64,000 nt of DNA from Rickettsiales bacterium (GTDB taxonomy: Bacteria; Pseudomonadota; Alphaproteobacteria; Rickettsiales; JAJNBL01), in contig JAJNBL010000003.1 in NCBI GenBank assembly GCA_021156175.1, forward strand, positions 115,897 to 179,896, given 5' to 3'. Position numbers and translations under genes: made by a program. The notes beneath the pieces were generated by a model. It worked only from the letters and a program-made list of their open reading frames with translations. It had not been told where the DNA came from and ran no database searches. This document shows, piece after piece, positions 358 through 51,130 of the stretch (positions are counted from its first letter, which is position 1; every line of letters starts with the position of its first letter).

Positions 358-532
358 GGGAAAAAGGACCTTTCATCTATAGATTAAGGCTTGTGATTCT
401 AAGGAGAGAAAGGCTGCTTGGCAATGTGTTTCTTGGTAGAAATAAAATAGTATAATTATTTAACTTTATGCTTGCTTTCTTAACCATTTATTAATAATAT
501 GATGCTGTCACGTAATGAGACAGAGGTGTGAA

Positions 533-1393
533 ATGTCTAAGAAGAAGAAAGTACGCCAAGTAAATGAAGCGCTTTGGGATGCCGCATTCCAGGGAAATTT
601 ACAGGAAGTAAAAGATCTTATTGAGAATAAAAAGGCCAATGTGGATGCGATTGTCACCACGGGTACTTTTCTGGGATGTACTTCATTACATCTGGCTGCC
701 ATGAGTGGAAAAGTTAGCGTATTCCAATACCTTATTGGAAAAATAGAGCCAGATACTTTAAAAATTCAAGCCACCTGGGATACTTGGAACAATGCTACTC
801 CGCTGCATATAGCCACAAAGTCGGGTTATGCAGACATCGTATTTGTTGCTTTGAATTATGCAAAAGAGAAGGTGCCGAGCCTTCCTGGCTTGTGTGATGG
901 CAATGGGAAAACGGCTATAAAGCTTGCGAAAGAGCAAAAAGAAGAAATTACTAGGCAATATAATGTCGCGGAAGATAATTTGAAAAATTATGATATGCAG
1001 ACCTATTATAAAGACCGCTCTGTCGTAGTTCCAGACGGAATGGTAAGGTTGTATGAAGTCACGCGCTGTATCTCTCTGATCGAAGAGTTTTTTAAACCCC
1101 GCCCTTCCTCTCAGCCGCTGCTTTCGCCTGAAGCCCTAAAACAAGTACAAAAAGAGAATTCTACTGCATCGAACGATCGTCTAACGACGAGCCATTCCTA
1201 TGTGGAGAAGAAGAAATTTACTTCTGAGCTAAGAAAAAGTAGCCAAGGAAGCGGCATTCTCCCAAGAAACAAATCGATTTCGTGGGAAGAATCTGTTACG
1301 GCTATTACTCCTCCTGGTTCGCCCTCGTCTCCTTCACATTCTCGTTCTTCAGAAAGCTCTTCGCCAAGCTCTGCGGGACAGAGGAAATTCTAA
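533..1393 (+). CDS. ankyrin-repeat protein with Ser/Pro-rich C-terminal tail
   Basis: ANK signatures are present: ALWDAAFQGNLQEVKDLIENKKANVDA, GCTSLHLAAMSGKVSVFQYLI and ATPLHIATKSGYADIVFVAL. The tail reads PPGSPSSPSHSRSSESSSPSS. I prefer the ATG at 533 (GAGG 6 nt upstream) over the track start at 515. Confidence 0.8.
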   Translation: MSKKKKVRQVNEALWDAAFQGNLQEVKDLIENKKANVDAIVTTGTFLGCTSLHLAAMSGKVSVFQYLIGKIEPDTLKIQATWDTWNNATPLHIATKSGYADIVFVALNYAKEKVPSLPGLCDGNGKTAIKLAKEQKEEITRQYNVAEDNLKNYDMQTYYKDRSVVVPDGMVRLYEVTRCISLIEEFFKPRPSSQPLLSPEALKQVQKENSTASNDRLTTSHSYVEKKKFTSELRKSSQGSGILPRNKSISWEESVTAITPPGSPSSPSHSRSSESSSPSSAGQRKF

Positions 1394-3871: not shown

Positions 3872-4597
3872 ATGCGTAATACTGTACCTTCATTAAAAGA
3901 ATTGGCTCAAAGACAATATTCCAAACAGGCTTTCTCGGCTTGCTATGCGGGACGCATTCCGAGGGACTTAAACCCTTTGCCTCGCTTTCGTGAGCAACTC
4001 CAGACTCTGCTGGATGCCTGTAAAGGTTTGGGGTATGACGGCAATAGTGATGCATTTGCCTATGACTGGATGGAGGATGGGTTAAGTATTCTTAAAAACA
4101 GTGCTGATCCTGTCGAGTCTGCTGCATATACGGCATTCCATCTTTTATGTTCGCCAGGGACTCCAAGAGATAACCCTATCGCGGTATTAAATGGTTATAT
4201 TAGCTCCATCTGCCCACGCCTAACCAAATTGTCCGAAGAACTTCCAAAGCAATTAGAAAAGCTTCTTACCATTGATAAAATTTTGTTTGAAAATGGGAAT
4301 GTGAAGGAGCTTCCAGAATTATGGCGCGCCTTACAAGAAGCGCATAGCACTATCCATTCCCCCGAAACACGCCTGCCGCTTCAGGGCTGTGTGTCATTCA
4401 ATACCGCTGCACCTAACGTTTTGCCTAATGCCTCACACATTGTAAGTCTCGCTCAGCTACCATTGCAAACAATACACGATATGACGGAAACTTTTATGGG
4501 TAGTGCGTTGGTGCAAGCAAAACTGCGCGAGAAACTGCCCAATGTTGCGCCGTTCCTATTAAGCCCAAGCCGGGAGAAAGAAACCCTGGAAAGATAG
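3872..4597 (+). CDS. hypothetical protein
   Basis: 241-aa ORF with coding-like composition. I recognise no motif. It sits where prmC often follows prfA but has no methyltransferase motifs. Confidence 0.5.
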   Translation: MRNTVPSLKELAQRQYSKQAFSACYAGRIPRDLNPLPRFREQLQTLLDACKGLGYDGNSDAFAYDWMEDGLSILKNSADPVESAAYTAFHLLCSPGTPRDNPIAVLNGYISSICPRLTKLSEELPKQLEKLLTIDKILFENGNVKELPELWRALQEAHSTIHSPETRLPLQGCVSFNTAAPNVLPNASHIVSLAQLPLQTIHDMTETFMGSALVQAKLREKLPNVAPFLLSPSREKETLER

Positions 4598-4620
4598 GGC
4601 TATAGGCTTGCATTCGGCTC

Positions 4621-6357
4621 TTATGGCCCACCAAACACCACATACACCGAACCTCCATTTGGGAAGGGGCTAGTCGCATAGGGTGCTCCTAAAATGGTAT
4701 CGGTGTAACCGTCGCCATTTACATCGCCGTAGCTGGTGGCAAAGATATATTCACTGATAGTGGTGGAGTTATTAAAGCTCATACCTCCATCGATTGCTTG
4801 GTAATCAATAATGGATAAAGAGCTCGGCCATGCCTGTCGTCCAAAGACAATGCGGGCTTTACCGGGTACAGGGACACCGCTTCCTAGATCTTCAAAGAAG
4901 ATATCATCGAAGCCATCTTTGTTGAAATCGATTTTGTCTTTAGATGTTTTAGCCAGTCCTCCAAATGAGCCAAGCGTTGGGCCTGAGAGGGTGAATCCAT
5001 TTTGCCCGGTTAATGTTGCAGCGGAAATAGCTTCCCCACCTGAGGTGAAACCTGATGCTGTCCCGAAGAAAACATAGACATATTGGGTGTTAATGCCTTT
5101 GCCAATTTGGAGATCATCATAACCATCAGTATTGACGTCTGCCTTGAGTTCAAGCTGATTCCCTAGCCCTACGTTTATGTTTGGGCTGGTGAATTTAATA
5201 CATTTTATACCGTTGCAGTAAGTAGAGAGGCTGGTGATACTCGTCCAAGCATCTTTACTTCCGAGTATGAGATATACTTCTCCGTTCTTATTTCCGTTGC
5301 CTGGGTAATCGGGAGCGCCGATGACGAAATCATCGATGCTATCTCCGTTAAAATCTCCCCCCATAGCGATGCCTTGGCCAGTGAGTGAGTTATCATTAAT
5401 GCCATCGATATAGAATCCACCATTGCTTCCGTTTAACGAATCCAGTGTAATGGCAGTATCCCAGCCAGATGTTTTTCCAAAAATAACATAGATTCTTCCT
5501 CTGTTGGCGCCTAGACCACTGTAATTAGGTGCGCCGATTACAAGATCGTCAAAGCCATCGCCGTTGATATCCCCACCGCCGGCTACCTTAAGGGTAGAAA
5601 CGCCAGTGCTGATTTGTGCCATGTCATTTATAGAGGTAAGGCTTGAAAGATTTATTCTACCACTGCTGCCTGTCCAATATTGCCGTGCTTTTCCAAAGAC
5701 AATGTAGATTTTATTGGCGGCCGGAGTGGTTGTATTACGTGTTACCAGTACGATATCATTAAAACCATCATTGTTTAAATCGCTGGAGGTATCGATTGCG
5801 CCTGAGACATAGCTGGAATCTGCGGCACCTAAACTATCACCGGCGGTAACGCCTTGTAGTGCGATTCCATCCGTTCCATCTATAGAAGATAGGGCAAGTG
5901 GTGTGGCCCAAGCGCCAGATTTTCCAAAAACAATATAGACGGTTCCGGCATCAGTCCGACCTTCAGGGTCGGCTTTGGGGGTGCCCATGATGATATCACT
6001 AAAACCATCTCCGTCGATATCTCCCGTTGCGGACAGTTCGGTGCCAGTTTCATCATATCCTGTTGCACCATTGATCCGAAAACCATTTGTTCCATTTACC
6101 GAAGGGTATTCAAAATCATCGGCACGTGTTGTGCGCTCGGCTGCACACGTTCCGATGTTGGTTTTACTCCCTGTGAGCTTCATAAATAATACGGATGATT
6201 TGCTTTTACAAACGCATTTTCCTACCGGATCGTTTTCTGTAATTTTATAGACCATTCCCGGAGCGCAGACAGTGCCTGTATTTGTATATTCCAAATCAAT
6301 GGCAAATGCGGGATGCGCAAGGAGTGATGCCAACAAAAACATAGATAACCGTTTCAT
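4621..6357 (-). CDS. secreted FG-GAP (integrin-alpha-like) repeat protein, predicted 7-blade beta-propeller
   Basis: Signal peptide MKRLSMFLLASLLAHPAFA. There are seven Ca-binding-type FG-GAP cores: DIDGDGFSDII, DLNNDGFNDIV, DINGDGFDDLV, DFNGDSIDDFV, DVNTDGYDDLQ, DFNKDGFDDIF and DVNGDGYTDTI, each followed by a YV.FG-type strand. I prefer the ATG at 6357 (GGAG 5 nt upstream) over the track start at 6393. Confidence 0.8.
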   Translation of the reverse strand: MKRLSMFLLASLLAHPAFAIDLEYTNTGTVCAPGMVYKITENDPVGKCVCKSKSSVLFMKLTGSKTNIGTCAAERTTRADDFEYPSVNGTNGFRINGATGYDETGTELSATGDIDGDGFSDIIMGTPKADPEGRTDAGTVYIVFGKSGAWATPLALSSIDGTDGIALQGVTAGDSLGAADSSYVSGAIDTSSDLNNDGFNDIVLVTRNTTTPAANKIYIVFGKARQYWTGSSGRINLSSLTSINDMAQISTGVSTLKVAGGGDINGDGFDDLVIGAPNYSGLGANRGRIYVIFGKTSGWDTAITLDSLNGSNGGFYIDGINDNSLTGQGIAMGGDFNGDSIDDFVIGAPDYPGNGNKNGEVYLILGSKDAWTSITSLSTYCNGIKCIKFTSPNINVGLGNQLELKADVNTDGYDDLQIGKGINTQYVYVFFGTASGFTSGGEAISAATLTGQNGFTLSGPTLGSFGGLAKTSKDKIDFNKDGFDDIFFEDLGSGVPVPGKARIVFGRQAWPSSLSIIDYQAIDGGMSFNNSTTISEYIFATSYGDVNGDGYTDTILGAPYATSPFPNGGSVYVVFGGP

Positions 6358-6371
6358 AAAAACTCCTTTTA

Positions 6372-8084
6372 CTACTGTACTGTAATGCCCCATTTACTGC
6401 TTAGATAGCCTTCCACTTTTTTCTGCTCTGGAGTGCTAAGCAGTCGATTATAGATAAGGATTTCGCCGATTTGGCCTCTGAAAAAATAACCTAAGTATAA
6501 ATCATCTGCCGCATTATATGATTGTCCTGCTCCCGTTCCTCCTCCCCATGAAGCCCCATTTTTGTAAAATGTCATCGTTGAGTTTGTTGTTCCATCCCAT
6601 GAGTTTGTTTGACCTATAATAGTTGGAACATTGGCAACGATTAGAGCGTCATTTGAGATGGATTTTGTTCCGCCTCCTCCGTTTCCTCCATGGTATCCGT
6701 ACATTTTTCCATTCGTCGTGACGAGATCATGTTCTCCTAGCTGATACTGCACTTGAAGAGGGTAGTCGCTCTTAAGGAGAATATGTCCAATAGCCACAGG
6801 GGTTGTTATTTTAACTACAGCAAATATCGAGTAACTACCGCTATGATCAAGAAATGGGCTGGAAGTTATTGCTAGCACGTGTCCCGCTGCTCCATTTACT
6901 GTCACGACATCTCTTCCGTTGATCCCTCCTGTTGTGAGCGTAGGAACAGCAGCTAGTGTATTGCTATCGCGCTTCATTCGAAGCACATTCGGCGATTTGC
7001 TGACCCACTGCGTGATGAGAGAAGTGTTGGCGGGGTTATCGCTTGTATCCCCATTACCATCAATATCGGTAGCATCCAGCCATAAAACGTTGCCGTTAAT
7101 ATCCGTTGGAATAAACGGTTTTTCCCGTGCCTGGCAGAAGGTATAAAGATACTTCGCGGTTTCGAATGCCTGGTTTGCAATAGCAGGGTAAGCCGCGTTG
7201 GCGTTAGCAAAATTGCCTAAATCATTCGTGCCCGCGGTGGGAATGCCATCTTTAATGATACTTTGCGCATTGTGGCATACTAAGTCATCAATGAGAAAAG
7301 GCGCTTCTGCTTTGCGAGGGGGGGAAAGGTCATTCTTCCGTTTATAGGCAACAATGTCATTAAACATCGAGTTTCCGTTATCCTGGATATAGATTCGGTT
7401 GGTTGTGTGGTTGGTATTTTCGAGTTCCCGTCCTGCTGTGGCGGTCGGAGTGGAGGCATTATTCCTAAACCATGCACCATTTCCGTCTGGGCCGTAGCTG
7501 ATAATCACATAAGCAGCACCTTGGCGATATTTTCTATCCCCCACCAGCGCAGTGGTTTTCTCGCGTCCAGCAAGGTCAGTGACAGCTAAATCCCCATCGT
7601 AGCGCGGATCACGGAAATCCTGTGCCCGCCCCATACCTGTTGCGAGTCGGTAGGTGAATTTTCTTCCCCAGGCATCATAGGCATAAGTTGCCGGAAGGCC
7701 GATGCTTCGTAACGGTAACATGCCAGGATCCTCTGCACAGAGCCCGGTGGAGGTTGTATAGGCGGAGGCTACGCCAAAGGTCGTAGCGGTTTCAAGGGAC
7801 GTTCCAATTCCAGGGCAGGGGAGATAGCCATTTTTATCCACAAAGAGTTTCAAGGCTTCTTCGATTACTGCAAGTTTTGTCATGGTATCGCGGACGCGAG
7901 TTCCCTGGTTTTGGGTATTGAGGATAGAGAGAGCTCCTGTTGCAAGAAGTGCAAGAATACTTAGCGAAATCGAAAGCTCGACCATGCTAAAGCCTTTTTG
8001 GCGCGCGAGTGCACGTGAGTACTGGAAGTCAGAAAATCTGACATTCGCAGCAAGTGAGAGTAGAATTTTATAACACCCTCGCAT
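6372..8084 (-). CDS. prepilin-type (GspG/type IV pilin-like) protein with C-terminal LamG/concanavalin-like domain
   Basis: N-methylation motif QKG|FSMVELSISLSILALLATGAL (Glu at +5). Pilin-fold motifs are YLPCP, DAWGRKFTYR and ISYGPDGNG. The C-terminus LWLDATDIDGNG...FRGQIGEILIYNRLLSTPEQKKVEGYLSSKWGI is typical of Laminin_G_3-type domains. The ATG at 8084 overlaps the upstream stop as TGATG. Alternative starts are ATG 8090 and TTG 8102. Confidence 0.75.
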   Translation of the reverse strand: MRGCYKILLSLAANVRFSDFQYSRALARQKGFSMVELSISLSILALLATGALSILNTQNQGTRVRDTMTKLAVIEEALKLFVDKNGYLPCPGIGTSLETATTFGVASAYTTSTGLCAEDPGMLPLRSIGLPATYAYDAWGRKFTYRLATGMGRAQDFRDPRYDGDLAVTDLAGREKTTALVGDRKYRQGAAYVIISYGPDGNGAWFRNNASTPTATAGRELENTNHTTNRIYIQDNGNSMFNDIVAYKRKNDLSPPRKAEAPFLIDDLVCHNAQSIIKDGIPTAGTNDLGNFANANAAYPAIANQAFETAKYLYTFCQAREKPFIPTDINGNVLWLDATDIDGNGDTSDNPANTSLITQWVSKSPNVLRMKRDSNTLAAVPTLTTGGINGRDVVTVNGAAGHVLAITSSPFLDHSGSYSIFAVVKITTPVAIGHILLKSDYPLQVQYQLGEHDLVTTNGKMYGYHGGNGGGGTKSISNDALIVANVPTIIGQTNSWDGTTNSTMTFYKNGASWGGGTGAGQSYNAADDLYLGYFFRGQIGEILIYNRLLSTPEQKKVEGYLSSKWGITVQ

Positions 8085-9205
8085 CAGCATGCCCCATCCC
8101 AACTACCATCCGCACAAATGCATATGCTTTGTGTTGTATCGTAGGTTCCACCGCCAGGGCATTTTTTCCCCTGCCATGCCCCGTTTGCTGCGGCGCCATA
8201 ATAATTACTGTGTCCGCAAATTTCTTGCATCGTCCAAAGAAGACCAATGATGGCTTCTTCACCCTCATTGTAATACACACCGCCATTGTTAATCCGGTAA
8301 TCGTCAATATTGGTTGTCATTGACGTACCGATGGTGGCTGTTAGTTTTGCGAGTTCCGTGCTGTTGTTGGAGCATTCGCCTTCCGTTACTAGACGTTTAG
8401 ATTTAAGGGTGGCAAGCGCTTTGAGATCGGATTTATTCCGGTAAACAACAATATCATCAAAGGTGCCATCGTAGGCTTTTTGAATGAAGGTGGTATCGGC
8501 ATCCGAATTTTCTTCTTCGTGCGTAGTGCCGGTGCCTGAAAGTAATACGCCACTTTCTGCGTAAATATCTTTCGCATTTGGCCCAGCACTCATCAACACA
8601 AACGCTCCTTTAGTGGTGAGGTTTGTGCTGCCGTTGGATACGGTAATATTGCCATCTGGTGTTGCGCCTGAACCGGCTACGCCTTCACGGAAATCGCGGG
8701 TAGTACAGCCTATTTCGTTGTTGGCTACGCCATCAGTTCCGCAAAGATTCGTACTGACACGGTAGCGAAATTCATTTCCCCATCCATCAAGACGTGCTTC
8801 CGGCCCTAGGTTTAGAGAGCGTACCGGAACGGCGCCTTCTGCCAGGGTGCAATCCCGGCTGGTTAAAGCTTCTTCTCCAAATTCATAAGTGACGGAGCTG
8901 GCGGATCGGGTGTTATCAATTCTCATTAAGGGATCGGCAGGGCAGGGTAAGCGGCCATACGTTGCGATAAATCCTGTAACGGCATCGGTAATCTTTAGCA
9001 TTTTTTTCTGTGTTTCTATTGCGCGCTTGGCGTGGGTGGTTACGGGAGGGGAAATCCAGCGCATTGAGCCGACTGCCAGGGTGGCGGCAATACCGATAAT
9101 AATCGAAAGTTCAATCAAGCTGAATCCACGCACGGCATAGGGAGCGGCTATGCGCTTGCTATAATAGGTTCTAGAGACGGAAAATGACATACCGTTCCTT
9201 CTCAT
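8084..9205 (-). CDS. prepilin-type (GspG/type IV pilin-like) protein with Cys-rich C-terminal extension
   Basis: N-methylation motif VRG|FSLIELSIIIGIAATLAVG. It shares motifs with the next gene: RLPCP, DGWGNEFRYR and MSAGPNAKD. The C-terminal 100 aa contain 7 Cys. An alternative start is the ATG at 9190. Confidence 0.75.
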   Translation of the reverse strand: MRRNGMSFSVSRTYYSKRIAAPYAVRGFSLIELSIIIGIAATLAVGSMRWISPPVTTHAKRAIETQKKMLKITDAVTGFIATYGRLPCPADPLMRIDNTRSASSVTYEFGEEALTSRDCTLAEGAVPVRSLNLGPEARLDGWGNEFRYRVSTNLCGTDGVANNEIGCTTRDFREGVAGSGATPDGNITVSNGSTNLTTKGAFVLMSAGPNAKDIYAESGVLLSGTGTTHEEENSDADTTFIQKAYDGTFDDIVVYRNKSDLKALATLKSKRLVTEGECSNNSTELAKLTATIGTSMTTNIDDYRINNGGVYYNEGEEAIIGLLWTMQEICGHSNYYGAAANGAWQGKKCPGGGTYDTTQSICICADGSWDGAC

Positions 9206-9375
9206 CGTTAAAGCCCTTTCTACCCTCCATATATTATATAATGAGAGGCTTTAAGATCTGGTTAACTAATAAATTATGCTGGAAGGGGGGTGTTTAATGT
9301 ATATTTTAATTCAATAGGTTACATTTATTTGAAAAAGGGCAACCCTTTAATAAAGTGAAGAAATCCACAAAAAAA

Positions 9376-9403
9376 TTGACAAATTAATGGATTTTAATAG
9401 GAT
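9376..9403 (+). promoter_or_regulatory. candidate sigma70-type promoter for the ankyrin gene at 9436
   Basis: TTGACA at 9376-9381, a 16-nt spacer, then TAGGAT. The background is AT-rich, so a chance match is possible. Confidence 0.35.
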
Positions 9404-9435
9404 ACGTTTCTTCGTAAATTATTATAGGCTCCCGT

Positions 9436-10644
9436 ATGAGTAAAGACTCCTTAGGTCAACGACTATTGTCTCTTATTGGACAGCGTGATTGCAATAAAGA
9501 AGCGGTATATGACCTACTTTTGGCGGGTGCCAATCCTAATGTAATAGATGAAAAGGGTCGTACGCCTTTGTTTTGGGCTACTGGTAACAACCGGTTTGAC
9601 CTCACCTATGCTCTTTTGTTATACGGGGCAAAGACCTTTGAGACAGTGAATTGGTATGCCTTAAAAGACCATTTCAATGATACGAAGAATCCGAAAAATT
9701 TAGAAAATGCCAAAAGGCTGACGATTCTTCTGTTTGCAGCTGGAGCTGTGAAAGAATCCTCAGTTCCTTCTTTTATCCCTAAAGAAATGTTTGTTTGTGC
9801 CCGCTTTCTAGAGCGAGATGGAGAAATGTTCCCTATCCAGGATAAAGATGGGCAGTCTTTCCTTATTGCTACGGATGAGGAAGGAAAAGAAAAAGCGGAA
9901 CTTATCTCAATAGAATCGCTTCCCATTAAAAAATATTATCAACTCAAAGGTGCTCTCAATCTTGAGGAAGAAACGGTTCGCGAAGGCGATGGGTTTGCTG
10001 CCCGCGCTGCGCGGATTAAAGAGAAGGTGAGGGAAGTCTATGATGCACTTAACTCTCATAAAACATCCGCAGTGGATATTGCTCCTACAGTGAAGGTTGT
10101 GCCTGCTATCGAGAAAAAGAAATCCTTTCGGAAAATGGAGTCCGAGGAGAAATCTCTTTCTCCTAAACCATCCCGTCGTGATATAAAACAATTGGATTTA
10201 AGCCACGTATCCCGGGCTTCTGAAAAACAAGCGCCTGAGCTAAAAATAGCCTCTTCTGTAACAAAAACTCCCCAGTTGGAAGTTCCTAAAACACGTCAAC
10301 GCTCATTCTCTGGTGAGAATAAAAGGCAACTTTTTGCCAAGTCTAGCCAAAGGGCGCTACTTTCTCCCATTAAAGAATCGCCAGGAAATACTCCTCAGAA
10401 GCTTGATACTGCGGCTACCAATCCGGTAAAAGTTCCAGAAGGGACATTCCTTGCTGTGGAACGTAGTTCTTCTCGTGAAAGGGCGTTATCCGAGGGGGCG
10501 CTTCCTAGTAAAAGAATGGGGGACTTATTGTCGAAGCCTAGTAAACGAACACTTCAAATGCAAAGAAATGGCAGTAAATTCACAGACGTAGTATTGACGG
10601 ATTCTGAAAATCCTTCAACGGAGCCGTTAAATCTGTACATTTAA
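9436..10644 (+). CDS. ankyrin-repeat protein with long disordered Ser/Pro/Lys-rich C-terminal half
   Basis: N-terminal ANK signature LLLAGANPNVIDEKGRTPLFWATGNNRFDLTYALLLYGA. The C-terminal ~180 aa are low complexity (SPKPSRRD, SPIKESPGNTPQK). Confidence 0.7.
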   Translation: MSKDSLGQRLLSLIGQRDCNKEAVYDLLLAGANPNVIDEKGRTPLFWATGNNRFDLTYALLLYGAKTFETVNWYALKDHFNDTKNPKNLENAKRLTILLFAAGAVKESSVPSFIPKEMFVCARFLERDGEMFPIQDKDGQSFLIATDEEGKEKAELISIESLPIKKYYQLKGALNLEEETVREGDGFAARAARIKEKVREVYDALNSHKTSAVDIAPTVKVVPAIEKKKSFRKMESEEKSLSPKPSRRDIKQLDLSHVSRASEKQAPELKIASSVTKTPQLEVPKTRQRSFSGENKRQLFAKSSQRALLSPIKESPGNTPQKLDTAATNPVKVPEGTFLAVERSSSRERALSEGALPSKRMGDLLSKPSKRTLQMQRNGSKFTDVVLTDSENPSTEPLNLYI

Positions 10645-11359: not shown

Positions 11360-11436
11360 GCACCCGTAGCTCAGCTGGATAGAGCATCTGACTACGAATC
11401 AGAAGGCCGGGCGTTCGAATCGCTCCGGGTGCACCA
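11360..11436 (+). tRNA. tRNA-Arg (anticodon ACG)
   Basis: Hand-folded cloverleaf: acceptor GCACCCG/CGGGTGC, D-arm GCTC-AGCTGGATA-GAGC, anticodon arm TCTGA-CTACGAA-TCAGA, T-arm with TTCGAAT loop, encoded CCA. Confidence 0.9.
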
Positions 11437-12038: not shown

Positions 12039-12335
12039 ATGAAAAAAGTTTTGACCGTTGCGTCTTTGGCACTTGCTGCTGTTGTTTCTACCTCTGCTAT
12101 CGCTGCTACCCCAGCTAAAGAAGCTGCTAAACCAGAAGCTGCTAAAGCTGCTGCTCCTGCTGCTTCTGCTGCTGCTCGCGTTATCGAACTTCAAAATGGT
12201 TCTAAAGCGAAAGTTGAAGGCGAGAACGTTTCTATCGAACAAGCTGATGGCTCTGCTAAACCAGCTCCAGATGGCGTTCACACTGCGAAAGATGGTCAAA
12301 CCATCACCACCAAAGGTGGCAAAATCGTTCAGTAG
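12039..12335 (+). CDS. small secreted Ala/Lys/Pro-rich protein
   Basis: AGGAG lies 6 nt upstream of the ATG. Signal peptide MKKVLTVASLALAAVVSTSAIA|A. The mature part reads TPAKEAAKPEAAKAAAPAASAAA followed by a short Gly/Lys-rich domain. A strong terminator follows. Confidence 0.75.
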   Translation: MKKVLTVASLALAAVVSTSAIAATPAKEAAKPEAAKAAAPAASAAARVIELQNGSKAKVEGENVSIEQADGSAKPAPDGVHTAKDGQTITTKGGKIVQ

Positions 12336-13212: not shown

Positions 13213-14046
13213 CTAAAACAGTTGAAGGGTGTCGCCTTCTTTGGCGATGATGCCGTTTGGGAAAATGGATTTTAACGCTTCCGCGCGTGCATGGAGCGCC
13301 GCGTCGTCCATATGTGGGTCGTGGTGGAAATCGACAAGCTGTTTTACGCCGGCTTCCTTTGCCAGGCGGACGGCCTGTTGCCAGGTGGAATGACCCCAGC
13401 CTTGGAAGCGGGAAAAATTTTGATCGTCAAATGTGCAGTCATAAATGAACAGATCGGCGCCTTTAATAAAGGAGAGTATGGCAGGATCAAGTATCCCTTC
13501 CTGATGCTCTACATCGGTAATATAGCAAATTGATTTACCTTTATAATCAATTCGGTATCCGGTTGATCTGCCGGGATGGTTTAAGAGAAGGGTCGTGATT
13601 TTGATGCCGTGATTTTCGAATGCAGGATGCTGCAATGCTTCGCCCGCATGGAAATCATGGAAATGCAAATCCGCCTGAAGTTGCTCAAGCGTGATTGGAA
13701 AGAGGGGCAAGTGCATTAGGTTCCGGATGACGTCCTCCAGCCTATAATCGGGCAGTAGATTTCCGGCCCAAACGCGTACCGTGCGTCCCGATTTATAGAG
13801 TGGCCCAAAAAACGGAAAACCTTGAATGTGGTCGATGTGTAAGTGACTGAGAAGAATGTCGATTTCTTGGACATCGTTCAATTGTTCGCCTAACGGAAAA
13901 ATGCCAGTGCCGGCATCGAGGATGATCTGCTTTTCTCCGCAACGGACAGAAATACAGGAGGTGTTTCCTCCATAATGCCGGAAATCCTGCGATATCACCG
14001 GTACAGTGCCGCGTACGCCCCAAAAACTTATGTCACATTGGCTCAT
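13213..14046 (-). CDS. MBL-fold metallo-hydrolase (PhnP/class II phosphodiesterase-like)
   Basis: HxHxDH motif LSHLHIDHIQGFPFFGP, an N-terminal FWGVRGT...GGNTSC block and downstream His/Asp ligands (LLNHPGRSTGYR, DFHHDP). Confidence 0.8.
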   Translation of the reverse strand: MSQCDISFWGVRGTVPVISQDFRHYGGNTSCISVRCGEKQIILDAGTGIFPLGEQLNDVQEIDILLSHLHIDHIQGFPFFGPLYKSGRTVRVWAGNLLPDYRLEDVIRNLMHLPLFPITLEQLQADLHFHDFHAGEALQHPAFENHGIKITTLLLNHPGRSTGYRIDYKGKSICYITDVEHQEGILDPAILSFIKGADLFIYDCTFDDQNFSRFQGWGHSTWQQAVRLAKEAGVKQLVDFHHDPHMDDAALHARAEALKSIFPNGIIAKEGDTLQLF

Positions 14047-14134
14047 TTCGAGTTTATCCTACTGTTAAATGGTATTTTAAGGGTTGTGCGGTATAAATAG
14101 TATTAAGATTAGCAGAAAATTTAGCCAGGGTTCC

Positions 14135-14626
14135 ATGGCAAGCATTGAAACAAAACAATTTAAGGCAGGCGACGTTATCTTCAAAGAAGGAGATAAGGCG
14201 GATTGCATCTATTTTATGTTAAGCGGAAAAGTCAGTATTACGCGGAACCAGGGTGGGAAAACGGTGACGCTTGCGACGCTTGAAAAAGATGCAGTTTTTG
14301 GTGAAATGGCGCTGATTGATAATAAACCCCGTTCGGCGAATGTTATTGCGTTAGAAGATTCTGAGTGCCTGAAAGCAACCGAGTCGAATTTTACCGGAGT
14401 GCTTAGTAAATCAAATGCTGCGATTAAAACAGCGCTCAAAGAACTTTCGACAATTATTCGCGAAAAAAATGTGCTGAGCGGCGGCGATCTTCCGCCGGGA
14501 TTGCAGCAAAAAATCTCAATTTTTAAGAAAAATAGCCAAGGGAATATCGCGCTAGAAAAAAGTTTGCGTGAGGCAGAGCCATTGATTAGTAACGTTTATA
14601 GCTCATTATTTTCGTATCTGGGATAA
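14135..14626 (+). CDS. stand-alone cyclic-nucleotide-binding (CAP-effector) domain protein
   Basis: The cNMP-binding cassette is FKAGDVIFKEGDKADCIYFMLSGKVSITRN...LEKDAVFGEMALIDNKPRSANVIALEDSECL. I see no recognisable C-terminal HTH. I prefer the ATG at 14135 over the TTG at 14084. Confidence 0.75.
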   Translation: MASIETKQFKAGDVIFKEGDKADCIYFMLSGKVSITRNQGGKTVTLATLEKDAVFGEMALIDNKPRSANVIALEDSECLKATESNFTGVLSKSNAAIKTALKELSTIIREKNVLSGGDLPPGLQQKISIFKKNSQGNIALEKSLREAEPLISNVYSSLFSYLG

Positions 14627-21451: not shown

Positions 21452-23083
21452 TTAAGAGGTCTCGCGGGATTTTCTCACCTCACATACCATTTTCGCGCAA
21501 ATTTCTCCGTTTACAAGGATTTCTGCGCTGATGGTATGTGTGTTTAGATCAGAAAATGTGATCTGAAATGGCTGCTCTGGCTTCAAAACAGAGAGGAATT
21601 TTGCAGAAATAATCCGTGTAAGCGTGTGTCCGTGCTGTGCGAGGCTATCCTCTAACTTTGCCAGCAAAAGCACGCCTGGGACAATTGGATTTCCCGGGAA
21701 ATGGCCAGAAAAAGCTGGGTGATCTTTTGGGAAAGCATATTCGGACTTATCGGATACAAGGAGCTCGTTCAGTGCGTCTTTGGAGATTTTTCCTGTGGGT
21801 AAGCGCGGAAGTTCGGTGACCGCAAGAATTTTGCGTGGAAGGAAAACCGGGTCAATATACTGCGCAAGATTTTTTAGGAATTCCTCTTTATCAAAGGCTT
21901 CTATGTTTTTATCCCTGGGTACGACAATCGCCGTCAGCCGTTCTACGTGGGCAGAGCTCTCAGGGATAAACAGTGCACCGTCTTCGATTCCGGGCATTTT
22001 CCTGAGGATAGTTTGCAGGCCTTGGAGTGATGCGCGTTTGCCGGCGACATTCAGCATGTCGCTTTGCCGGCCTTCTAGCGTAAATGTGCCGTCACTTGCT
22101 AGATTTAGCACATCTCCAAGCGTAATCGCTTCAGGAAGATGCGGAGCAGAAATGTAAGATTCTTCATTCGTTTGCGAAAAAGAAAAGCTTTCATAGGGGC
22201 GCCAACGGTCCCTCCCCCCTTCCCCGGTTGTTCGCCGTGAAGCCATGGAGCCAGCTTCTGTGCATCCATATATCTCAAAGACTTGTGTATTATACTTCAT
22301 CTCGAATGCGAGAGCTGTTTCCGGTGAAAGTGGGGCGGTTGCGGAGATCACTTGCTTGAGTGGTGGGAGTGCAATATTGCTTTTCAGGAAATTTTCCAAA
22401 TGGAGCGGTGTCGTCACCAATGTAAGTCTTGATTCAGGATTACTTTCAAGCGCTTTTCGGAACGCTTCTTCAAGATCGGCGGGATAAAATGGCATTGTGT
22501 TATAGCAGGAAGCAAAGCCCATCATGGGAAGCATAATGGTGGTCTCTAGCCCATACATATGCTGGTGTGGCACGGTTGCAACAATCACATCGTTGTGAGA
22601 GGTAAAACCGAAACGTTTGGCGGCAAGCTCCGCGCCAATTCTCAGCATTCCATAGGTCTTTGTATGGGGAGTAGGATTTCCGGTGCTGCCCGAAGTAAAG
22701 GCAATGACGGCGGGATGTGCATCATCAATTGGGGCGATAGTATGAGAGAGGTTATGTTTAAAATTATACGGCAAAAGGCAGTGACAATAAATTGAATTAT
22801 AATGAGAATCTTCGTTATCGGTGAGGATGTAGCTATCGGGATAGTTCTTGTATATTTGCTCTAATGTTTTTGGGCTGCTATTGGGTGGCAAAAGATGTGT
22901 CTGTCCCTTCTGCCATGCGGCTTCCAGGGCCAGCATAAAATTATAACGGTGGGTGCAGAGATTGATCACAAAGCGCGCATTTGGAAGGTGGGCTGCCTGA
23001 AATTCCATGTCTTCTAGATAATCATCGCGGGTACGTATCCCCTCTTTCGTAATGCAGAGCGTGTCAGATGACGCGGTAATCAT
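21452..23083 (-). CDS. acyl/aryl-AMP ligase (adenylate-forming enzyme) fused to a C-terminal FabZ/FabA-like hot-dog dehydratase domain
   Basis: ANL core motifs are FTSGSTGNPTPHTKTY, EIYGCTEAG and LPRLPTGKISK. The C-terminal ~110 aa carry HPAFSGHFPGNPIVPGVLLL (FabZ-type catalytic His motif). I prefer the ATG at 23083 (GGGGAG 7 nt upstream) over the track start at 23164. Confidence 0.8.
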   Translation of the reverse strand: MITASSDTLCITKEGIRTRDDYLEDMEFQAAHLPNARFVINLCTHRYNFMLALEAAWQKGQTHLLPPNSSPKTLEQIYKNYPDSYILTDNEDSHYNSIYCHCLLPYNFKHNLSHTIAPIDDAHPAVIAFTSGSTGNPTPHTKTYGMLRIGAELAAKRFGFTSHNDVIVATVPHQHMYGLETTIMLPMMGFASCYNTMPFYPADLEEAFRKALESNPESRLTLVTTPLHLENFLKSNIALPPLKQVISATAPLSPETALAFEMKYNTQVFEIYGCTEAGSMASRRTTGEGGRDRWRPYESFSFSQTNEESYISAPHLPEAITLGDVLNLASDGTFTLEGRQSDMLNVAGKRASLQGLQTILRKMPGIEDGALFIPESSAHVERLTAIVVPRDKNIEAFDKEEFLKNLAQYIDPVFLPRKILAVTELPRLPTGKISKDALNELLVSDKSEYAFPKDHPAFSGHFPGNPIVPGVLLLAKLEDSLAQHGHTLTRIISAKFLSVLKPEQPFQITFSDLNTHTISAEILVNGEICAKMVCEVRKSRETS

Positions 23084-23699
23084 ACGGCACCTCCCCGATT
23101 TTCGTGTTAAGCCAAATGCCCGGATGGGTGCAAAGAATGCGCAACGTTTTTCCTGGAGATTCATTCACTTTATAGCATAATGCACTGAAAAAATGAGAAA
23201 TAATAAAGACAGAAATCAGAATGCTCGGGGCAATGATATTTGAGAAGGTTGACCACCCTGCTATGTCGTCGCGTGCTGCCAAATAAATCGAGCCGATTGC
23301 ACATCCAGAGCACAAAAACGTCCATAAAATTGTTTGATAACGGGTGTAGCGCAAAAACGGCGGCTGTAATGGGGATGAGGTATGGACGAGATAGGAAAAA
23401 TGCGTCACAAGTGGCACATGGCCTGGAAGTAAGGTCCGGAAAAATAATCCGGCGGTTACCAAATTAATCGCAATCGGCGGGAAATAGATAACGTAATGGG
23501 TTATGCGTGGCCAGGTGGATGCGACTATTTCTCCGGCGGTAATGGTTAGGAGTGCGATTGCAGAAAATGCGAGTACCTTAGGAGCGATCATTTTGATTTT
23601 ACGACATATTATAGGAGTCGCGGCTGTTCCGACTAAGATATAAAGAATCGCTCGGAAAGCAAGATTAGGATAACCCTCGATGATTGCCACATGGAGCAA
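23064..23699 (-). CDS. integral membrane protein (about 6 TM), unknown function
   Basis: Hydrophobic throughout (IALLTITAGEIVASTW, YVIYFPPIAINLVTAGLFF, ILWTFLCSGCAIGSIYL, IIAPSILISVFIISHFF). It overlaps the ligase start by 20 nt. The start is uncertain, with an internal ATG at 23591. Confidence 0.6.
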   Translation of the reverse strand: MLHVAIIEGYPNLAFRAILYILVGTAATPIICRKIKMIAPKVLAFSAIALLTITAGEIVASTWPRITHYVIYFPPIAINLVTAGLFFRTLLPGHVPLVTHFSYLVHTSSPLQPPFLRYTRYQTILWTFLCSGCAIGSIYLAARDDIAGWSTFSNIIAPSILISVFIISHFFSALCYKVNESPGKTLRILCTHPGIWLNTKIGEVPYDYRVI

Positions 23700-23747
23700 T
23701 ATAAAAGACGCAATGAAGAGAGTGACCCGAAAAAGTAGTATTTTTTG

Positions 23748-24014
23748 CTACTCCTGATGCTCTTCGATATAAGCTGCCAATGCGCCAAGGGATGCAAAAA
23801 TTTCTTTTGTTTTTTCGTCATCGGAACGGATTTTAATGCCATATTTTTTGGAAATGGCAAGCGCAAGCTCCAGCGCATCAATCGAATCAAGCCCTACCCC
23901 ATCGTAAAATAACGCCATATCGGAGGTAATGTCCTCGGGCGCAATATCTTCCAGAAACAGTGTTTCGGTGATCAGTGTTGCGATTTCTAATTCAAATGCG
24001 GTTTGTTCAGTCAT
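23748..24014 (-). CDS. acyl carrier protein
   Basis: 88 aa and acidic, with the phosphopantetheine attachment motif GLDSIDALELALAI. Confidence 0.85.
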   Translation of the reverse strand: MTEQTAFELEIATLITETLFLEDIAPEDITSDMALFYDGVGLDSIDALELALAISKKYGIKIRSDDEKTKEIFASLGALAAYIEEHQE

Positions 24015-24058
24015 GTGTTTTAGAATGCTCCTTTCTTATTACTATTATGTTTTTTGCT

Positions 24059-24192
24059 GTCATCATCGCGAGGAACGAAGCGCGATCCAGCCCAAAAACA
24101 AAAAATTATCCTTATTTAAGTAAAGGGATCTGGATTGCTTCGTTAGGCTATCGCCTTCCTCGCAATAACGACCTCTCGTGAGTGTTCTACCT
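24059..24192. repeat. palindromic MITE/REP-like element, family 1 (GTCAT..GCGAGG...GCAATCCAG arms) with shared tail
   Basis: The left arm is GTCATCATCGCGAGGAACGAAGCGCGATCCAGC (24059-24091). The right arm is CTGGATTGCTTCG...CCTCGCAATAACGAC (24130-24172). The tail is CTCTCGTGAGTGTTCTACCT. Related copies lie at 42262-42366. The same tail recurs at 42295-42315 and 55875-55899. Confidence 0.7.
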
Positions 24193-24198
24193 TTTTCC

Positions 24199-25443
24199 TT
24201 AAACGCCAAGCCGCTTTTTCATAGTATAAATGCCCTTAAATAGCAACAACGGCCAAGAGAGCGAAAATTTTTCACGGAAATCACCTGCGAGCAATGAAAT
24301 CACGGCATTTTCGAGTTTGAGGATATTACGCGGATGGACCATCATATCGCGGAAAACCGGGCAGTTGATGTGGTAAATAAACCAGGAAACCCGTTTCATT
24401 GTGCGGTCAGTTTCGTTTCGGAAAGCGGCAAAGACCCGTTCGCGCTTTTGGGGATGCTGTAACGCAGTATGGATAAGCTCGGAAGCTTTGGTTCCGGAGG
24501 TCATCGCAAAGAGCACGCCGGTCGAGAAAACGGGGTCAATAAACCCAAAGGCATCGCCGATCATCATGTAATTCTTGCCGTACATCTCTTTGGAAAAGTA
24601 GGAAAAATTGCCGGTTGCTTGCACCTCACCAACGCCTTTGGCATGCTCCATCCGTTCCCAGACTTTTGCGTGGCGCTTGCAGTGATCCCAGAAAAATTCT
24701 TCAAGCGAACCTTTGCGTTCTTTTAAATATTCGGGCGTGGCGACGATCCCGACACTCGTAATGCCGTGCTGCAGCGGGATCATCCACATCCAGCCCTGAT
24801 CGGCCAAATGGACGCGGATATTGCCTTCATCATCGTCTGGCATTTCTTTTAAGCCCGAAAAATGGCCAAAAATTGCTGCGGAATTATTATGCGGATTGCG
24901 AAGTTTGAGTTGCAGTGCACTGGAAAATAACGTATCGCGTCCGGTTGCATCCACGACAAAGCGCGGGGTAAAGTGGTATTTCTCCCCCTGCTCCGATTCG
25001 GCTTCTACCGATTCTACCTGTTGTTTATCCTGGCTAAATTGCACGCGTGTGACTTTCACGCCTTCTAATGTTGTAGCGCCTTGTTTTTGGGCGTGCTTAA
25101 AAAGAAGGTGATCGAATTCAGAGCGTTTGACCTGGTACGCATATCCGTGGTTTTTCTCGAGTGAGCGGTCGAAATAAAAGGTATGGGTTTTTTGGTACTC
25201 TTCGGAGATAAAGCTCGCCCCTTTTTTGAGTACACCGATTGCGTGAACATCGTCCAGCACGCCCAGTTTCTCAAAAATTTTGAGGTTCATCGGGAGCAGC
25301 GATTCGCCAATATGGAAGCGCGGATGATGGTCTTTTTCTAGCAAGGTGACGCTGTATCCTTGCTTTACGAGGAGTGCCGCAGCGGTTGAGCCCGCGGGAC
25401 CGCCGCCGATGATGAGGATGTCTGGGGTTAGATGCATAGACAA
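24199..25443 (-). CDS. FAD-dependent halogenase-like oxidoreductase
   Basis: GxGxxG (IIGGGPAGS), HIGESLLP, the WxWxIP motif (GWMWMIPL) and the FxxPxxSxG motif (GFIDPVFSTGV) are all present. This is the signature set of flavin-dependent halogenases. Confidence 0.75.
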   Translation of the reverse strand: MSMHLTPDILIIGGGPAGSTAAALLVKQGYSVTLLEKDHHPRFHIGESLLPMNLKIFEKLGVLDDVHAIGVLKKGASFISEEYQKTHTFYFDRSLEKNHGYAYQVKRSEFDHLLFKHAQKQGATTLEGVKVTRVQFSQDKQQVESVEAESEQGEKYHFTPRFVVDATGRDTLFSSALQLKLRNPHNNSAAIFGHFSGLKEMPDDDEGNIRVHLADQGWMWMIPLQHGITSVGIVATPEYLKERKGSLEEFFWDHCKRHAKVWERMEHAKGVGEVQATGNFSYFSKEMYGKNYMMIGDAFGFIDPVFSTGVLFAMTSGTKASELIHTALQHPQKRERVFAAFRNETDRTMKRVSWFIYHINCPVFRDMMVHPRNILKLENAVISLLAGDFREKFSLSWPLLLFKGIYTMKKRLGV

Positions 25444-26382: not shown

Positions 26383-26469
26383 TGGTGCTCTGGAGAAGAC
26401 TCGAACTTCCACGGGATTGCTCCCACTAGCACCTGAAGCTAGCGCGTCTACCAATTCCGCCACCAGAGC
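26383..26469 (-). tRNA. tRNA-Leu (anticodon CAG)
   Basis: The reverse complement folds as acceptor GCTCTGG/CCAGAGC, anticodon arm CTAGC-TTCAGGT-GCTAG, a long variable arm, T-loop TTCGAGT and encoded CCA. Confidence 0.88.
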
Positions 26470-32718: not shown

Positions 32719-32793
32719 GGTGCACCCGGCGAGAGTCGAACTCACGGCCTCTGCCTTCGGAGGGCAGCGCTCTATCCACTGAGCTACGGGTGC
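32718..32793 (-). tRNA. tRNA-Arg (anticodon CCG)
   Basis: The reverse complement folds as acceptor GCACCCG/CGGGTGC, anticodon arm CTGCC-CTCCGAA-GGCAG, T-loop TTCGACT and encoded CCA. Confidence 0.9.
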
Positions 32794-40139: not shown

Positions 40140-41297
40140 ATGAGCAAGCATACAGGATATTTTCAAGAATTATTGACTGTAAGGGGAAAAGAATTATTAG
40201 CCGCAATAAAAACACAATTATTAGCTGCAATAGAATCCGATAATCTTGGAAAAGTGAGTGAGATCCTGGGCAGTTCAAAGCTTACTATGGCCGAGAGAAT
40301 GGAGTTGCTCGTTGAAGATAAGCATTCAGTCTTGCGAACTGCCATATCGAGTAAGAAGCTTATGATCGGGCGGTACCTTCTATCATTTTATGATAATACT
40401 CATCTTAAGAGTGGAATAAGTCGTATTGCAGAAACATTGTACTCCACTTTGCAAGACGCTGTATCGACAGGGGATATTCTTACGGTGCAAGATCTAATCG
40501 ATAATTTTTACAGTAAGAAGGAATTAAAGCTTTCCCTCACAGGGGTTTTGGAAGCATATGACCACTCCGTTCTGCAAAAAGCTATCTCGACAGGCAATCT
40601 TGCTGTGGTGCAATATCTGCTAGGTTTCTACAGTAAGAAGGAATTGGGGCTTTCTGTTACAGAAGCTTTGAAGGCAGATCAGCACTCCGCCTTGCGAGGA
40701 GCTATTGCGACAGGCGACCTTCGTATGGTGCAATATCTGCTGGATAATTTCTACAGTAAGCCAGAACTTGGGCTTTCTATCTCAGAGGCTTTGAAGATAA
40801 AGGACCATGAGGTTTTGAAGGCAGAAGGGCATGAAATCCTGGAAAATCTTATCTACAAAGGTCTTCTTCCTTTGGTGCAGCATGTGGTGGCTAATTTCTA
40901 CAATAAGCCGGAATTTGGACTTTCCCTCTCAGAGGCTTTGAAAGCACGTGACCATTATGCCCTGCGCGGAGTTATCTCGACAGGTAATTTTTCTATGGTG
41001 CACTATCTGGTGGATAATTTCTATAATAAGTCGGAAATGGGGCTCTCTATCGCAGAGGCTTTGAAAGCAGATAAGCATGAAGCTCTACGAGATGTTATTC
41101 GCAGAGGCGACCTTCGTATGCAGGAATATCTGGTGGATAATTTTTACAGTAAGCCGGAATTTGATCTTTCTATTCCAGAGGATTTGAAAGAAAAGCTTAC
41201 AAGCCTTGTTAAACAGAATGTGCGAACATGGGGAGAGACAGTAAAGGAAAAACGGCAAGTAGGAAATCTCTCACTTCAGGCAGGTCCGGTAATCTAA
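40140..41297 (+). CDS. tandem-repeat protein: about seven copies of a 40-41-residue ANK-like helical repeat
   Basis: The repeat unit is H.ALRGAI.TGDLRMVQYLLDNFYSKPELGLSISEALKAxD (aa 61-350). GAAGG RBS. Its stop overlaps the convergent recR stop. Confidence 0.8.
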   Translation: MSKHTGYFQELLTVRGKELLAAIKTQLLAAIESDNLGKVSEILGSSKLTMAERMELLVEDKHSVLRTAISSKKLMIGRYLLSFYDNTHLKSGISRIAETLYSTLQDAVSTGDILTVQDLIDNFYSKKELKLSLTGVLEAYDHSVLQKAISTGNLAVVQYLLGFYSKKELGLSVTEALKADQHSALRGAIATGDLRMVQYLLDNFYSKPELGLSISEALKIKDHEVLKAEGHEILENLIYKGLLPLVQHVVANFYNKPEFGLSLSEALKARDHYALRGVISTGNFSMVHYLVDNFYNKSEMGLSIAEALKADKHEALRDVIRRGDLRMQEYLVDNFYSKPEFDLSIPEDLKEKLTSLVKQNVRTWGETVKEKRQVGNLSLQAGPVI

Positions 41298-44272: not shown

Positions 44273-44288
44273 AAGCGAACACGCTTGC

Positions 44289-44385
44289 GGAAGGCCGGAC
44301 AGCAACCCGCCACTCTCCTGCTTACGGCTGCTTCCTTTCGGACCTGACCGGATTTAGCAGGCGTGTCGCCTACCGCCAACCTTCC
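44289..44385 (-). ncRNA. ffs: signal recognition particle RNA (4.5S-type)
   Basis: The minus strand contains GGTCAGGTCCGAAAGGAAGCAGCC, the conserved SRP domain IV motif with a GNRA loop. The flanking GGAAGGTTGGCGG... / ...CCGGCCTTCC closes the long helix. Its position upstream of dnaX is conserved. The ends are approximate. Confidence 0.8.
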
Positions 44386-50987: not shown

Positions 50988-51119
50988 ATTCGTTAATGAA
51001 TAGTTAATGGATAACGGCTACCCATCGGGTATATACCCTCCTCCCGGTGGATTACGTGGCCAAAAATACCCGATCAACCCTCCTCCACCCCGGGCAGTCT
51101 CGACTGTTCGGGGTTTTTT
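50988..51119 (+). ncRNA. candidate small RNA or cis-acting leader with two CCCTCCTCC (anti-SD) motifs and an intrinsic terminator
   Basis: One hairpin is CCATCGGG(51022-51029)/CCCGGTGG(51043-51050), with CCCTCCTCCC at 51036-51045 spanning the loop and 3' stem. A second CCCTCCTCC lies at 51078-51086. The terminator is CCCCGGGCAG-TCTCGA-CTGTTCGGGG (51088-51113) plus TTTTTT (51114-51119). The 5' end is inferred from the promoter. Confidence 0.45.
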
Positions 51120-51130
51120 CTAAAGATAAT

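Follow-up and report, generated by a model that had tools for sequence, protein, structure and literature searches.

Modular pilins have been defined as a class, and 264 of their architectures have been catalogued (Raynaud et al. 2021, PMC8179133). The most frequent, with 229 proteins, joins a pilin to the LamG domain PF13385, and pilin-FG-GAP (IPR013517) and FG-GAP-PilY1 proteins are also listed (PMC8179133 Dataset S1/S2). In Streptococcus sanguinis the lectin-module pilin PilC has been modelled at the pilus tip beside a second modular pilin (Shahin et al. 2023, PMC9934059), and in enterotoxigenic Escherichia coli and Vibrio cholerae the minor pilins CofB and TcpB each bind the N-terminal part of an operon-encoded, Sec-exported partner, CofJ and TcpF respectively. 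Here we describe an operon of three genes, g1, g2 and g3, within a 64,000-nucleotide stretch (the window) of Rickettsiales bacterium contig JAJNBL010000003.1; the window also corresponds to positions 26,937–90,936 of a 393,608-bp metagenome contig. The first two genes encode paralogous prepilin-type proteins with a large head, and the third encodes a Sec-exported FG-GAP propeller protein. On balance we favour the interpretation that g1 and g2 contribute minor, low-abundance subunits to a type IV filament displaying adhesive domains both in cis and in trans.

A first-pass annotation, made from the sequence alone, knew of no described system with this combination of genes. That statement goes too far, as the catalogue already includes pilin-LamG, pilin-FG-GAP and FG-GAP-PilY1 proteins; searching the literature for minor pilins in combination with FG-GAP gave no result. 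Because modular pilins and partners of the PilY1 and CofJ/TcpF kinds are established, the locus is a variation on the modular-pilin theme and not a new kind of machine.

Domain content of the three coupled genes

The operon consists of three long open reading frames (ORFs), all on the minus strand: g1 (8084–9205), g2 (6372–8090) and g3 (4621–6357; 578 amino acids (aa)). Their coupling is as tight as first described, with the g1 stop TGA (8086–8084) and the g2 ATG (8084–8082) overlapping as TGATG at 8082–8086, and with the g3 ATG at 6357 following the g2 stop TAG (6374–6372) after 14 nt and preceded by the Shine-Dalgarno sequence AAGGAG. Two of the genes have more than one candidate start. For g1 these are ATG 9205 (373 aa) and ATG 9190 (368 aa), the latter being the Joint Genome Institute (JGI) call and having a better-placed AAGGA. 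For g2 they are ATG 8084 (570 aa) and an in-frame ATG 6 nt upstream at 8090, which the JGI gene call uses (572 aa); the sequence collection contains an exact match for the 572-aa form and none for the 570-aa form. The neighbouring genes are divergent (9436–10644) and convergent (3872–4597), so that g1-g2-g3 constitute a self-contained unit. Three independent metagenome assemblies (two JGI, one Logan) contain the trio in identical or near-identical form, and its products have homologues in many lineages, from which we conclude that the genes are real. By its position, the AT-rich 230-bp divergent intergenic region (9206–9435) presumably contains the operon promoter; a promoter-like hexamer pair is present on the minus strand at 9418–9391, although such sites are no commoner than in shuffled sequence. 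A consensus match to a weak terminator-like hairpin (4582–4601, minus strand) is positioned 20 nt past the g3 stop.

In both g1 and g2 a basic leader with a final Gly precedes a hydrophobic stretch of some 20 residues that has a Glu at +5. The junctions, with the predicted cleavage site shown by a slash, are ...YAVRG/FSLIELSIIIGIAATLAVG in g1 (the leader ending AVRG/FSLIELS) and ...ARQKG/FSMVELSISLSILALLATG in g2 (RQKG/FSMVELS). The prepilin and fold motifs reported previously are all present, as GFSLIE (residue 27), LPCP (86), DGWGNEFRYR (140) and SAGPN (206) in g1, and as GFSMVE (31), LPCP (88), DAWGRKFTYR (137) and SYGPD (196) in g2. The g2 product passes the prepilin profiles PF07963 (25.9 bits, cut-off 21.2) and TIGR02532 (25.2 bits, cut-off 16.3), and the g1 product is assigned to the prepilin type by its G/FSLIE motif and by its paralogy to g2 over the first ~290 residues (BLASTP E=1e-21). 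A word-indexed search returned 122 homologues of g1, mostly annotated as prepilin-type N-terminal domain proteins, and seven g2-type proteins; the g2 orthologues include P0002–P0007.

The g1 product has three parts. The mature pilin module (residues 27–257; 8435–9127, minus strand) comprises the hydrophobic alpha1 with Glu5 and a head containing LPCPA, DGWG..F.YR, SAGPN and FDDIV. It is followed by a helical hairpin or bundle (residues 258–330; 8216–8434, minus strand) with conserved Cys278 and Cys330, and the protein ends in a four-cysteine knot, CPGGGTYDTTQSICICADGSWDGAC (8087–8161, minus strand), identified by regular expression and corresponding to the Cys-rich C-terminus already recognised in one of the two pilins. 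An AlphaFold2 (AF2) model of g1 (pLDDT 84.9) is consistent with this layout, containing an N-terminal helix (30–83), a beta-rich head, a helical bundle and a terminal hairpin, with the helices of the bundle predicted at residues 258–272, 275–286, 290–299 and 315–330.

In g2 the mature pilin module (residues 32–253; 7326–7991, minus strand) carries LPCP, DAWGRKFTYR, SYGPDG and NDIV, and a C-terminal LamG/concanavalin-A-like domain occupies residues ~325–570 (6375–7112, minus strand), starting ...LWLDATD and ending GQIGEILIYNRLLSTPEQKKVEGYLSSKW. This combination of N_methyl and a LamG-like domain is that of a modular pilin as defined. The LamG call was also made in the first-pass annotation, and it is at the family level that it holds: taken alone the g2 domain is sub-threshold, whereas homologous domains in relatives pass the cut-off, as seen for the orthologous domain in P0002 (29.5 bits) and L011 (51.7 bits; L numbers denote related loci) and for the LamG appended to the g1-type protein of L009 (30.8 bits). 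A PDB profile search with the g2 family matched pilin N-termini only, apart from one non-significant S-layer match for the C-terminal domain, and gave no significant LamG match. The AF2 model of g2 has an overall pLDDT of 72.6, exceeding 90 over most of residues 40–170, where a helix (34–85) is followed by beta strands; the LamG part is poorly modelled (pLDDT ~30 at residues 432–531). In both AF2 models the secondary structure is of the lollipop type, which speaks for filament subunits.

The g3 product was described at first as a signal-peptide protein with seven FG-GAP blades, and both features are borne out. Its Sec signal peptide (residues 1–19) reads MKRLSMFLLASLLAHPAFA/I, and a seven-bladed FG-GAP beta-propeller (residues ~88–578; 4624–6096, minus strand) is identified by Pfam (PF01839, 131.6 bits, cut-off 22.1) and by seven calcium-binding-type loops DxDxDGxxD (searched as D-x-[DN]-x-[DN]-G-x-x-D), which lie at residues 113, 193, 263, 335, 407, 477 and 545 with a regular spacing of about 70 aa. 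There are matches to integrin alpha-V chains in the PDB at about E=1e-7. No PilY1/PilC domain (PF05567, IPR008707, Neisseria_PilC) is found among the g3 Pfam matches at E<=0.1. Homologues of g3 reach at most 37% identity, hundreds of generic FG-GAP/RTX proteins lying at 33–37%.

Between the signal peptide and the propeller is a four-cysteine connector (residues 31–71, CAPGMVYKITENDPVGKCVCKSKSS...TNIGTC; 6145–6267, minus strand), a module shared with the pilins and found by regular expression. The module has two forms, type A (CPG..Y..CxC..W..C), to which the g1 knot belongs, and type B (CPxxM[VI]..CxC....C). Type B opens the mature third-gene products (g3 and its counterparts in L049 and L007) and is also located before or between the LamG domains of g2-type proteins (P0002, L010, L011). 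Among the 2,582 ORFs of all fetched loci the regular expression gave 32 matches, 30 of them within the operon's own proteins, namely in g1-type C-termini, g2-type linkers and third-gene N-termini.

The head family and its relatives

An alignment of 69 sequences defines the ~290-aa head common to g1 and g2, behind which there is the helical hairpin with its two conserved cysteines. The elements of the head run from the leader Gly and FSLIELS through NGRLPCPA, a partner Cys, G.VP...LGL, DGWG..FTY, SHG.NG.GA and E.EN to FDDIV. P-C-P, D140, S206 and G208 (g1 numbering) are invariant in the alignment, L34 and E36 are each nearly invariant or invariant across the family, and the family motifs are invariant across lineages at 25–46% identity. 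The two pilins were first noted as having large extensions and three to four times the usual size. They are indeed oversized with a C-terminal add-on domain, but because the ~290-aa module and the hairpin are common to the family, the extra size is largely that of the family's own big head.

The family is extensive. An exhaustive profile search identified 6,259 representatives at E<=1e-30 and 10,910 at E<=1e-10; among the top 135 representatives, 59 are head-only (<350 aa) and 52 are longer than 500 aa. Profile scans of g1, g2 and their relatives did not assign the head to any Pfam or NCBIfam model. Across GTDB species genomes, the family is present mainly in metagenome-assembled genomes (MAGs) of Rickettsiales and other Alphaproteobacteria, including Ca. 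Arcanobacter lacustris and UBA6187, with further matches in Pirellulales, Planctomycetaceae, Gemmataceae, Terriglobia and Rubrivivax. Some Rickettsiales MAGs have either tandem arrays of three or four head-only paralogues (270–510 aa) or several versions of about 1,000 aa (L019/L031, 9962–12578; L043, 250–5217; L033, 5698–14911), and these appear to be lineage-specific expansions.

We compared the family with GspG, whose fold the first-pass annotation had attributed to both pilins. The GspG profile TIGR01710 gives 17.7 bits against a cut-off of 88.85 and aligns over profile positions 1–61 only. With hhalign, the family matches E. coli K-12 GspG (L048) at 96% over columns 7–75, i.e. alpha1, and in an hmmsearch with the family profile GspG ranks above the other E. 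coli pseudopilins (E=2.6e-12), with 0.4 bits for AYDLLSAGPDG, the co-linear segment of the head. Membership in GspG was thus rejected, in that the full-length cut-off failed and only alpha1 was significant with either method. The attribution is sustained for the N-terminal helix; for the head, the profile and Foldseek comparisons are non-significant. Three GspG head motifs (DPWGNDY, YDLLSAGPDG and EDDI in E. coli) nevertheless occur in the same order in g1 (DGWGNEF, FVLMSAGPNA and FDDI), and this co-linearity makes it a reasonable lead that the head may have descended from a GspG-like head with insertions.

A g1-type and a g2-type gene are adjacent and translationally coupled, usually with an overlap, in at least 10 lineages (L004, L007, L009–L013, L036 and L049–L052), and in three lineages the pair adjoins NifU. 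Every g1-type protein examined from those loci has the type-A knot as its C-terminus. The exact trio, whose co-conservation had been put forward as a check on the initial proposal, is not maintained: g3 has no orthologue above 37% identity, and while the g1+g2 pair is kept the third slot is swappable. The product of the gene in this slot in L049 and L007 has a LamG-like domain behind a signal peptide and a type-B Cys connector, and the third gene is absent from L004, L050 and L051. The L049 and L007 third-gene products are co-linear with residues ~563–700 of the long g2-type proteins encoded in L009, L011 and L036 (E=3e-9 to 4e-7), a segment that comprises a connector and the second LamG unit, and the g3 connector aligns weakly at the same place (E=0.001–0.015 in a 206-ORF set). 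This co-linearity has the form of a gene fission, and suggests that the third gene may be a display unit split from a multi-module pilin, with the binding domain apparently swapped for FG-GAP in the operon described here.

The long g2-type proteins (1,132–1,335 aa), encoded in Athabascaceae-like and other Rickettsiales genomes, contain three or four tandem LamG-like units separated by Cys connectors (L009, 9866–13303; L011, 10124–14131; L036, 6197–9595). In genomes with these tandem-LamG proteins the g1-type protein gains a LamG of its own.

Display domains are also joined directly to the head. L023, L045 and L035 have the head in one polypeptide with seven FG-GAP repeats, L032 and L034 with a reported five or six, L009 and L011 with LamG, and L018 with a WD40-like propeller; BLAST matches of the FG-GAP fusions to g3 extend down to E=4e-42. 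The fibre-tip adhesin role proposed at first is strengthened by relatives that fuse the same head to a seven-repeat propeller. It is still the best reading of an operon remote from the machinery, with the correction that the combination is not without precedent.

The same fusions bear on whether the operon serves secretion and not adhesion. The g1 and g2 products would then be pseudopilins of a machine resembling a type II secretion system (T2SS), or of a secreting type IV pilus (T4P), and g3 would be the cargo, recognised via its N-terminal connector, pushed out, and acting free or bound to a host as do TcpF and T2SS substrates. The g3 product carries a Sec signal peptide and lacks a pilin module, the secreted partners CofJ and TcpF encoded in type IVb operons are recognised via their N-termini by minor pilins, and GspG is the E. 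coli pseudopilin that the family profile matches best, all as would be expected of such a machine. However, FG-GAP and LamG are covalently fused to the pilin in many relatives and so are not releasable there, GspG membership fails (17.7 versus 88.85 bits), and GspD, GspE and GspF are encoded nearby in no locus. We regard secretion as unlikely.

Proposed filament assembly and genomic context

If g1 and g2 are minor subunits displaying adhesive domains, as we favour, the filament would be a type IV pilus or a related pseudopilus, built by an ATPase, platform protein, secretin and prepilin peptidase whose genes lie in another part of the genome. The peptidase would cut after Gly (g1 ...VRG/F, g2 ...QKG/F), and the hydrophobic alpha1 with Glu5 would insert both proteins into the filament, probably at or near the tip since the subunits are bulky. 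Each pilin would be modular, composed of the ~290-aa head, a helical hairpin stapled by a disulphide, and a display module, which is the four-cysteine knot in g1 and the lectin-like LamG domain in g2. The g3 product would be the same kind of display unit, a Cys connector with a calcium-type, integrin-like propeller, exported by Sec as a protein of its own and either presented with the pilins or released via the same machine, by comparison with PilY1 on minor pilins and with CofJ and TcpF on CofB and TcpB. The assembly could act as a multivalent adhesin for glycan and protein ligands, and its ankyrin-rich, Rickettsiales-like genomic context makes the surface of a eukaryotic (protist) host a likely target.

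A more specific and rather doubtful version is that the pilin pair forms a tip scaffold onto which a Sec-exported cassette, consisting of the four-cysteine connector and an exchangeable domain, docks in trans. If so, lineages would be able to exchange binding units (FG-GAP here, LamG in two others) and to carry them in cis or in trans, the cassette would be a host-range determinant for protist-associated Rickettsiales-like bacteria, and the head would define a large family of more than 6,000 clusters at 50% identity that lacks a Pfam or NCBIfam model.

Several observations weigh against assembly of these proteins into an adhesive filament. The g1 product scores 12.7 bits with N_methyl (PF07963), under the 21.2 cut-off, and the g2 product scores 20.2 bits (E=7e-4) with Laminin_G_3 (PF13385), below the gathering cut-off of 27.6. 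Both leaders are unusually long, at 31–33 aa in g2 (7992–8084, minus strand) and 21–26 aa in g1 (9128–9205, minus strand); leaders of the g2 orthologues are about 8–12 aa, and g2 has no downstream start codon before its Gly-Phe site. Foldseek searches of the PDB with the g1 and g2 AF2 models place PilE (1ay2/2hi2), CofA and GspG (3g20) at the top, all at E>=0.3, and with no match below that value they are not proof of the fold. That the g1 Cys knot is the docking site for g3 is speculative: co-occurrence lends no support, as the knot is also present in lineages without a third gene. A search for RNA runs carrying the operon DNA returned only two runs, both of them soil DNA metagenomes. As had been noted from the sequence, there is no assembly machinery in the window: Pfam analysis of 30 further window ORFs found no ATPase, platform protein, secretin or peptidase, phmmer with E. 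coli GspC–O found none in the window ORFs or in loci L001–L047, and there are no pilus genes in record positions 18,440–100,607, an 82-kb part of the 393-kb parent contig. At about 50 related loci, a short A24 peptidase in L025 is the only machinery gene within 10 kb. Motif greps of the L001–L047 flanks, for the GspE/PilB Walker A, the secretin tail, GspF and PilD, gave three PilD-like matches, of which L025 is this true short A24 peptidase, L026 has no Pfam support and L042 is a motif match only.

The consistent distance from the machinery in about 50 loci is what would be expected if the proteins were not filament subunits at all, and the prepilin-like N-terminus were an inner-membrane anchor for periplasmic or envelope ectodomains of the LamG or Cys-knot type. 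The g3 product would then be their partner in the periplasm, for example in the handling of polysaccharides or of the envelope, and the family would resemble the orphan pilin-like expansions of Planctomycetes and Verrucomicrobia. Its very large size, with many paralogues per genome, and its presence in Pirellulales, Gemmataceae and Terriglobia are compatible with this. We consider it improbable, however, as the conserved Gly-1, Glu5 and leader are hallmarks of processed and assembled pilins, and modules of the lectin-like and integrin-like kinds typically serve display at the cell surface. Distance is in any case common for minor-pilin operons, which are often unlinked to the machinery, as in the fimU-pilVWXY1E locus of P. 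aeruginosa.

T4P genes are reported in Athabascaceae and Mitibacteraceae, including UBA6187 (Athabascaceae), the closest genome with the pair, and T4P is inferred to be ancestral in Rickettsiales and tied to host attachment (PMC9352585, PMC10847448). T4P has also been lost repeatedly in crown Rickettsiales, and together with the 82 kb free of machinery this raises the question of whether the operon is a relict, an orphan remnant with no current function in a host-associated lineage without pilus machinery. That seems very improbable given the intact ORFs (373, 570 and 578 aa) with coupled starts, the recovery of an identical or near-identical trio from three independent assemblies, and family motifs that remain invariant at 25–46% identity across lineages.

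The surroundings of the operon fit a protist-associated, Rickettsiales-like soil bacterium, by virtue of ankyrin genes and a gene-transfer agent (GTA)-like tail gene. The density of ankyrin-repeat genes, which are eukaryote-like effector candidates, is unusually high, with at least six in the window (515–1393, 9436–10644, 40140–41297, 51047–51787, 61556–62341 and 62436–63671) and more beyond it (L053, 11300–12520 and 15030–15998); an LRR_TMOD-like protein is encoded at 59736–60875. Effector candidates of the ankyrin and LRR types are characteristic of bacteria that are intracellular or associated with protists. On the minus strand at 55892–59593 lies the gene for a 1,233-aa GTA/phage distal-tail protein (GTA_TIM, Phage-tail_3, Rcc01698_C), and DUF2793 and phage-lysozyme genes are located just outside the window, in what looks like part of a gene-transfer-agent or prophage-remnant cluster (window 55892–59593 and L053, 17257–20688).

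The window has other features as well. An AMP-binding/FabA-like protein (570 aa) is encoded near a tryptophan-halogenase-type flavin enzyme (414 aa) at 21452–25443 (minus strand), and the pair may be a small biosynthetic locus for a halogenated metabolite. A metallo-beta-lactamase-fold protein (13213–14046, minus strand; JGI Pfam label Anti-Pycsar_Apyc1/Lactamase_B_2) is divergent to a cNMP-binding protein (14084–14626, plus strand), and these could be a cyclic-nucleotide hydrolase and sensor. A 98-aa signal-peptide protein (12039–12335, plus strand) has an Ala/Lys/Pro-rich low-complexity stretch and no family match. The window contains a signal recognition particle RNA gene (44287–44384, minus strand) and three tRNA genes (11360–11433, plus strand; 26386–26469 and 32721–32793, minus strand), and no rRNA genes, so that it lacks a direct marker for taxonomy.

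Comparison with described systems

To the known themes this locus adds a different large pilin head, four-cysteine connectors, and a series of display units carried in cis and in trans, which offers a natural system for asking how type IV filaments present bulky adhesive modules. The Rickettsiales T4P subunits that would bind eukaryotic hosts have not yet been described, and a head family that carries lectin-like, integrin-like and WD40-like modules is a source of candidate host-attachment factors in early-branching and environmental Rickettsiales-like bacteria.

The closest parallels are the S. sanguinis modular pilins PilC, with its concanavalin-A-like lectin, and PilB, with a vWA module. 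In both systems a class III signal peptide and pilin module have a binding module grafted at the C-terminus, and two modular pilins are encoded side by side. The proteins described here differ in having a distinct and much larger head of ~290 aa that has no Pfam or NCBIfam model, in having hairpin and four-cysteine modules between the head and the binding module, and in belonging to diderm Rickettsiales-like bacteria; in addition, the locus is not a pil locus, and one display unit is a separate Sec-dependent protein.

The operon also resembles the PilY1/PilC and FimU-PilVWXE systems of Pseudomonas, Neisseria and Myxococcus, in which a large signal-peptide beta-propeller protein with calcium-type sites, PilY1, is encoded with minor pilins, unlinked to the assembly genes, and is presented at the pilus tip. 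The likeness is functional and architectural only, since g3 has no PilY1 domain and its propeller is of the integrin-type FG-GAP class, and the pilins here are two paralogues and not a GspH/I/J/K-like set. With CofB-CofJ and TcpB-TcpF the operon shares a minor pilin with extra C-terminal beta or lectin domains and a Sec-exported protein encoded in the same operon. This analogy is drawn from the literature, no relation in sequence being expected, and the N-terminus of g3 is predicted to be a folded four-cysteine module, unlike the flexible peptide of CofJ and TcpF.

Comparison with T2SS GspG reveals a prepilin leader, alpha1 and three head motifs in the same order, but a head of double the length that contains insertions and additional disulphides, and no gsp operon of the kind that encodes GspG and the GspHIJK tip complex. 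Finally, the g3 propeller is 33–37% identical to those of the bacterial FG-GAP 'integrin alpha' proteins, which are often linked to RTX and type I secretion; g3 is set apart from them by its Sec signal peptide, its lack of RTX repeats, its operon-specific Cys connector and its place in the third slot of a pilin operon.

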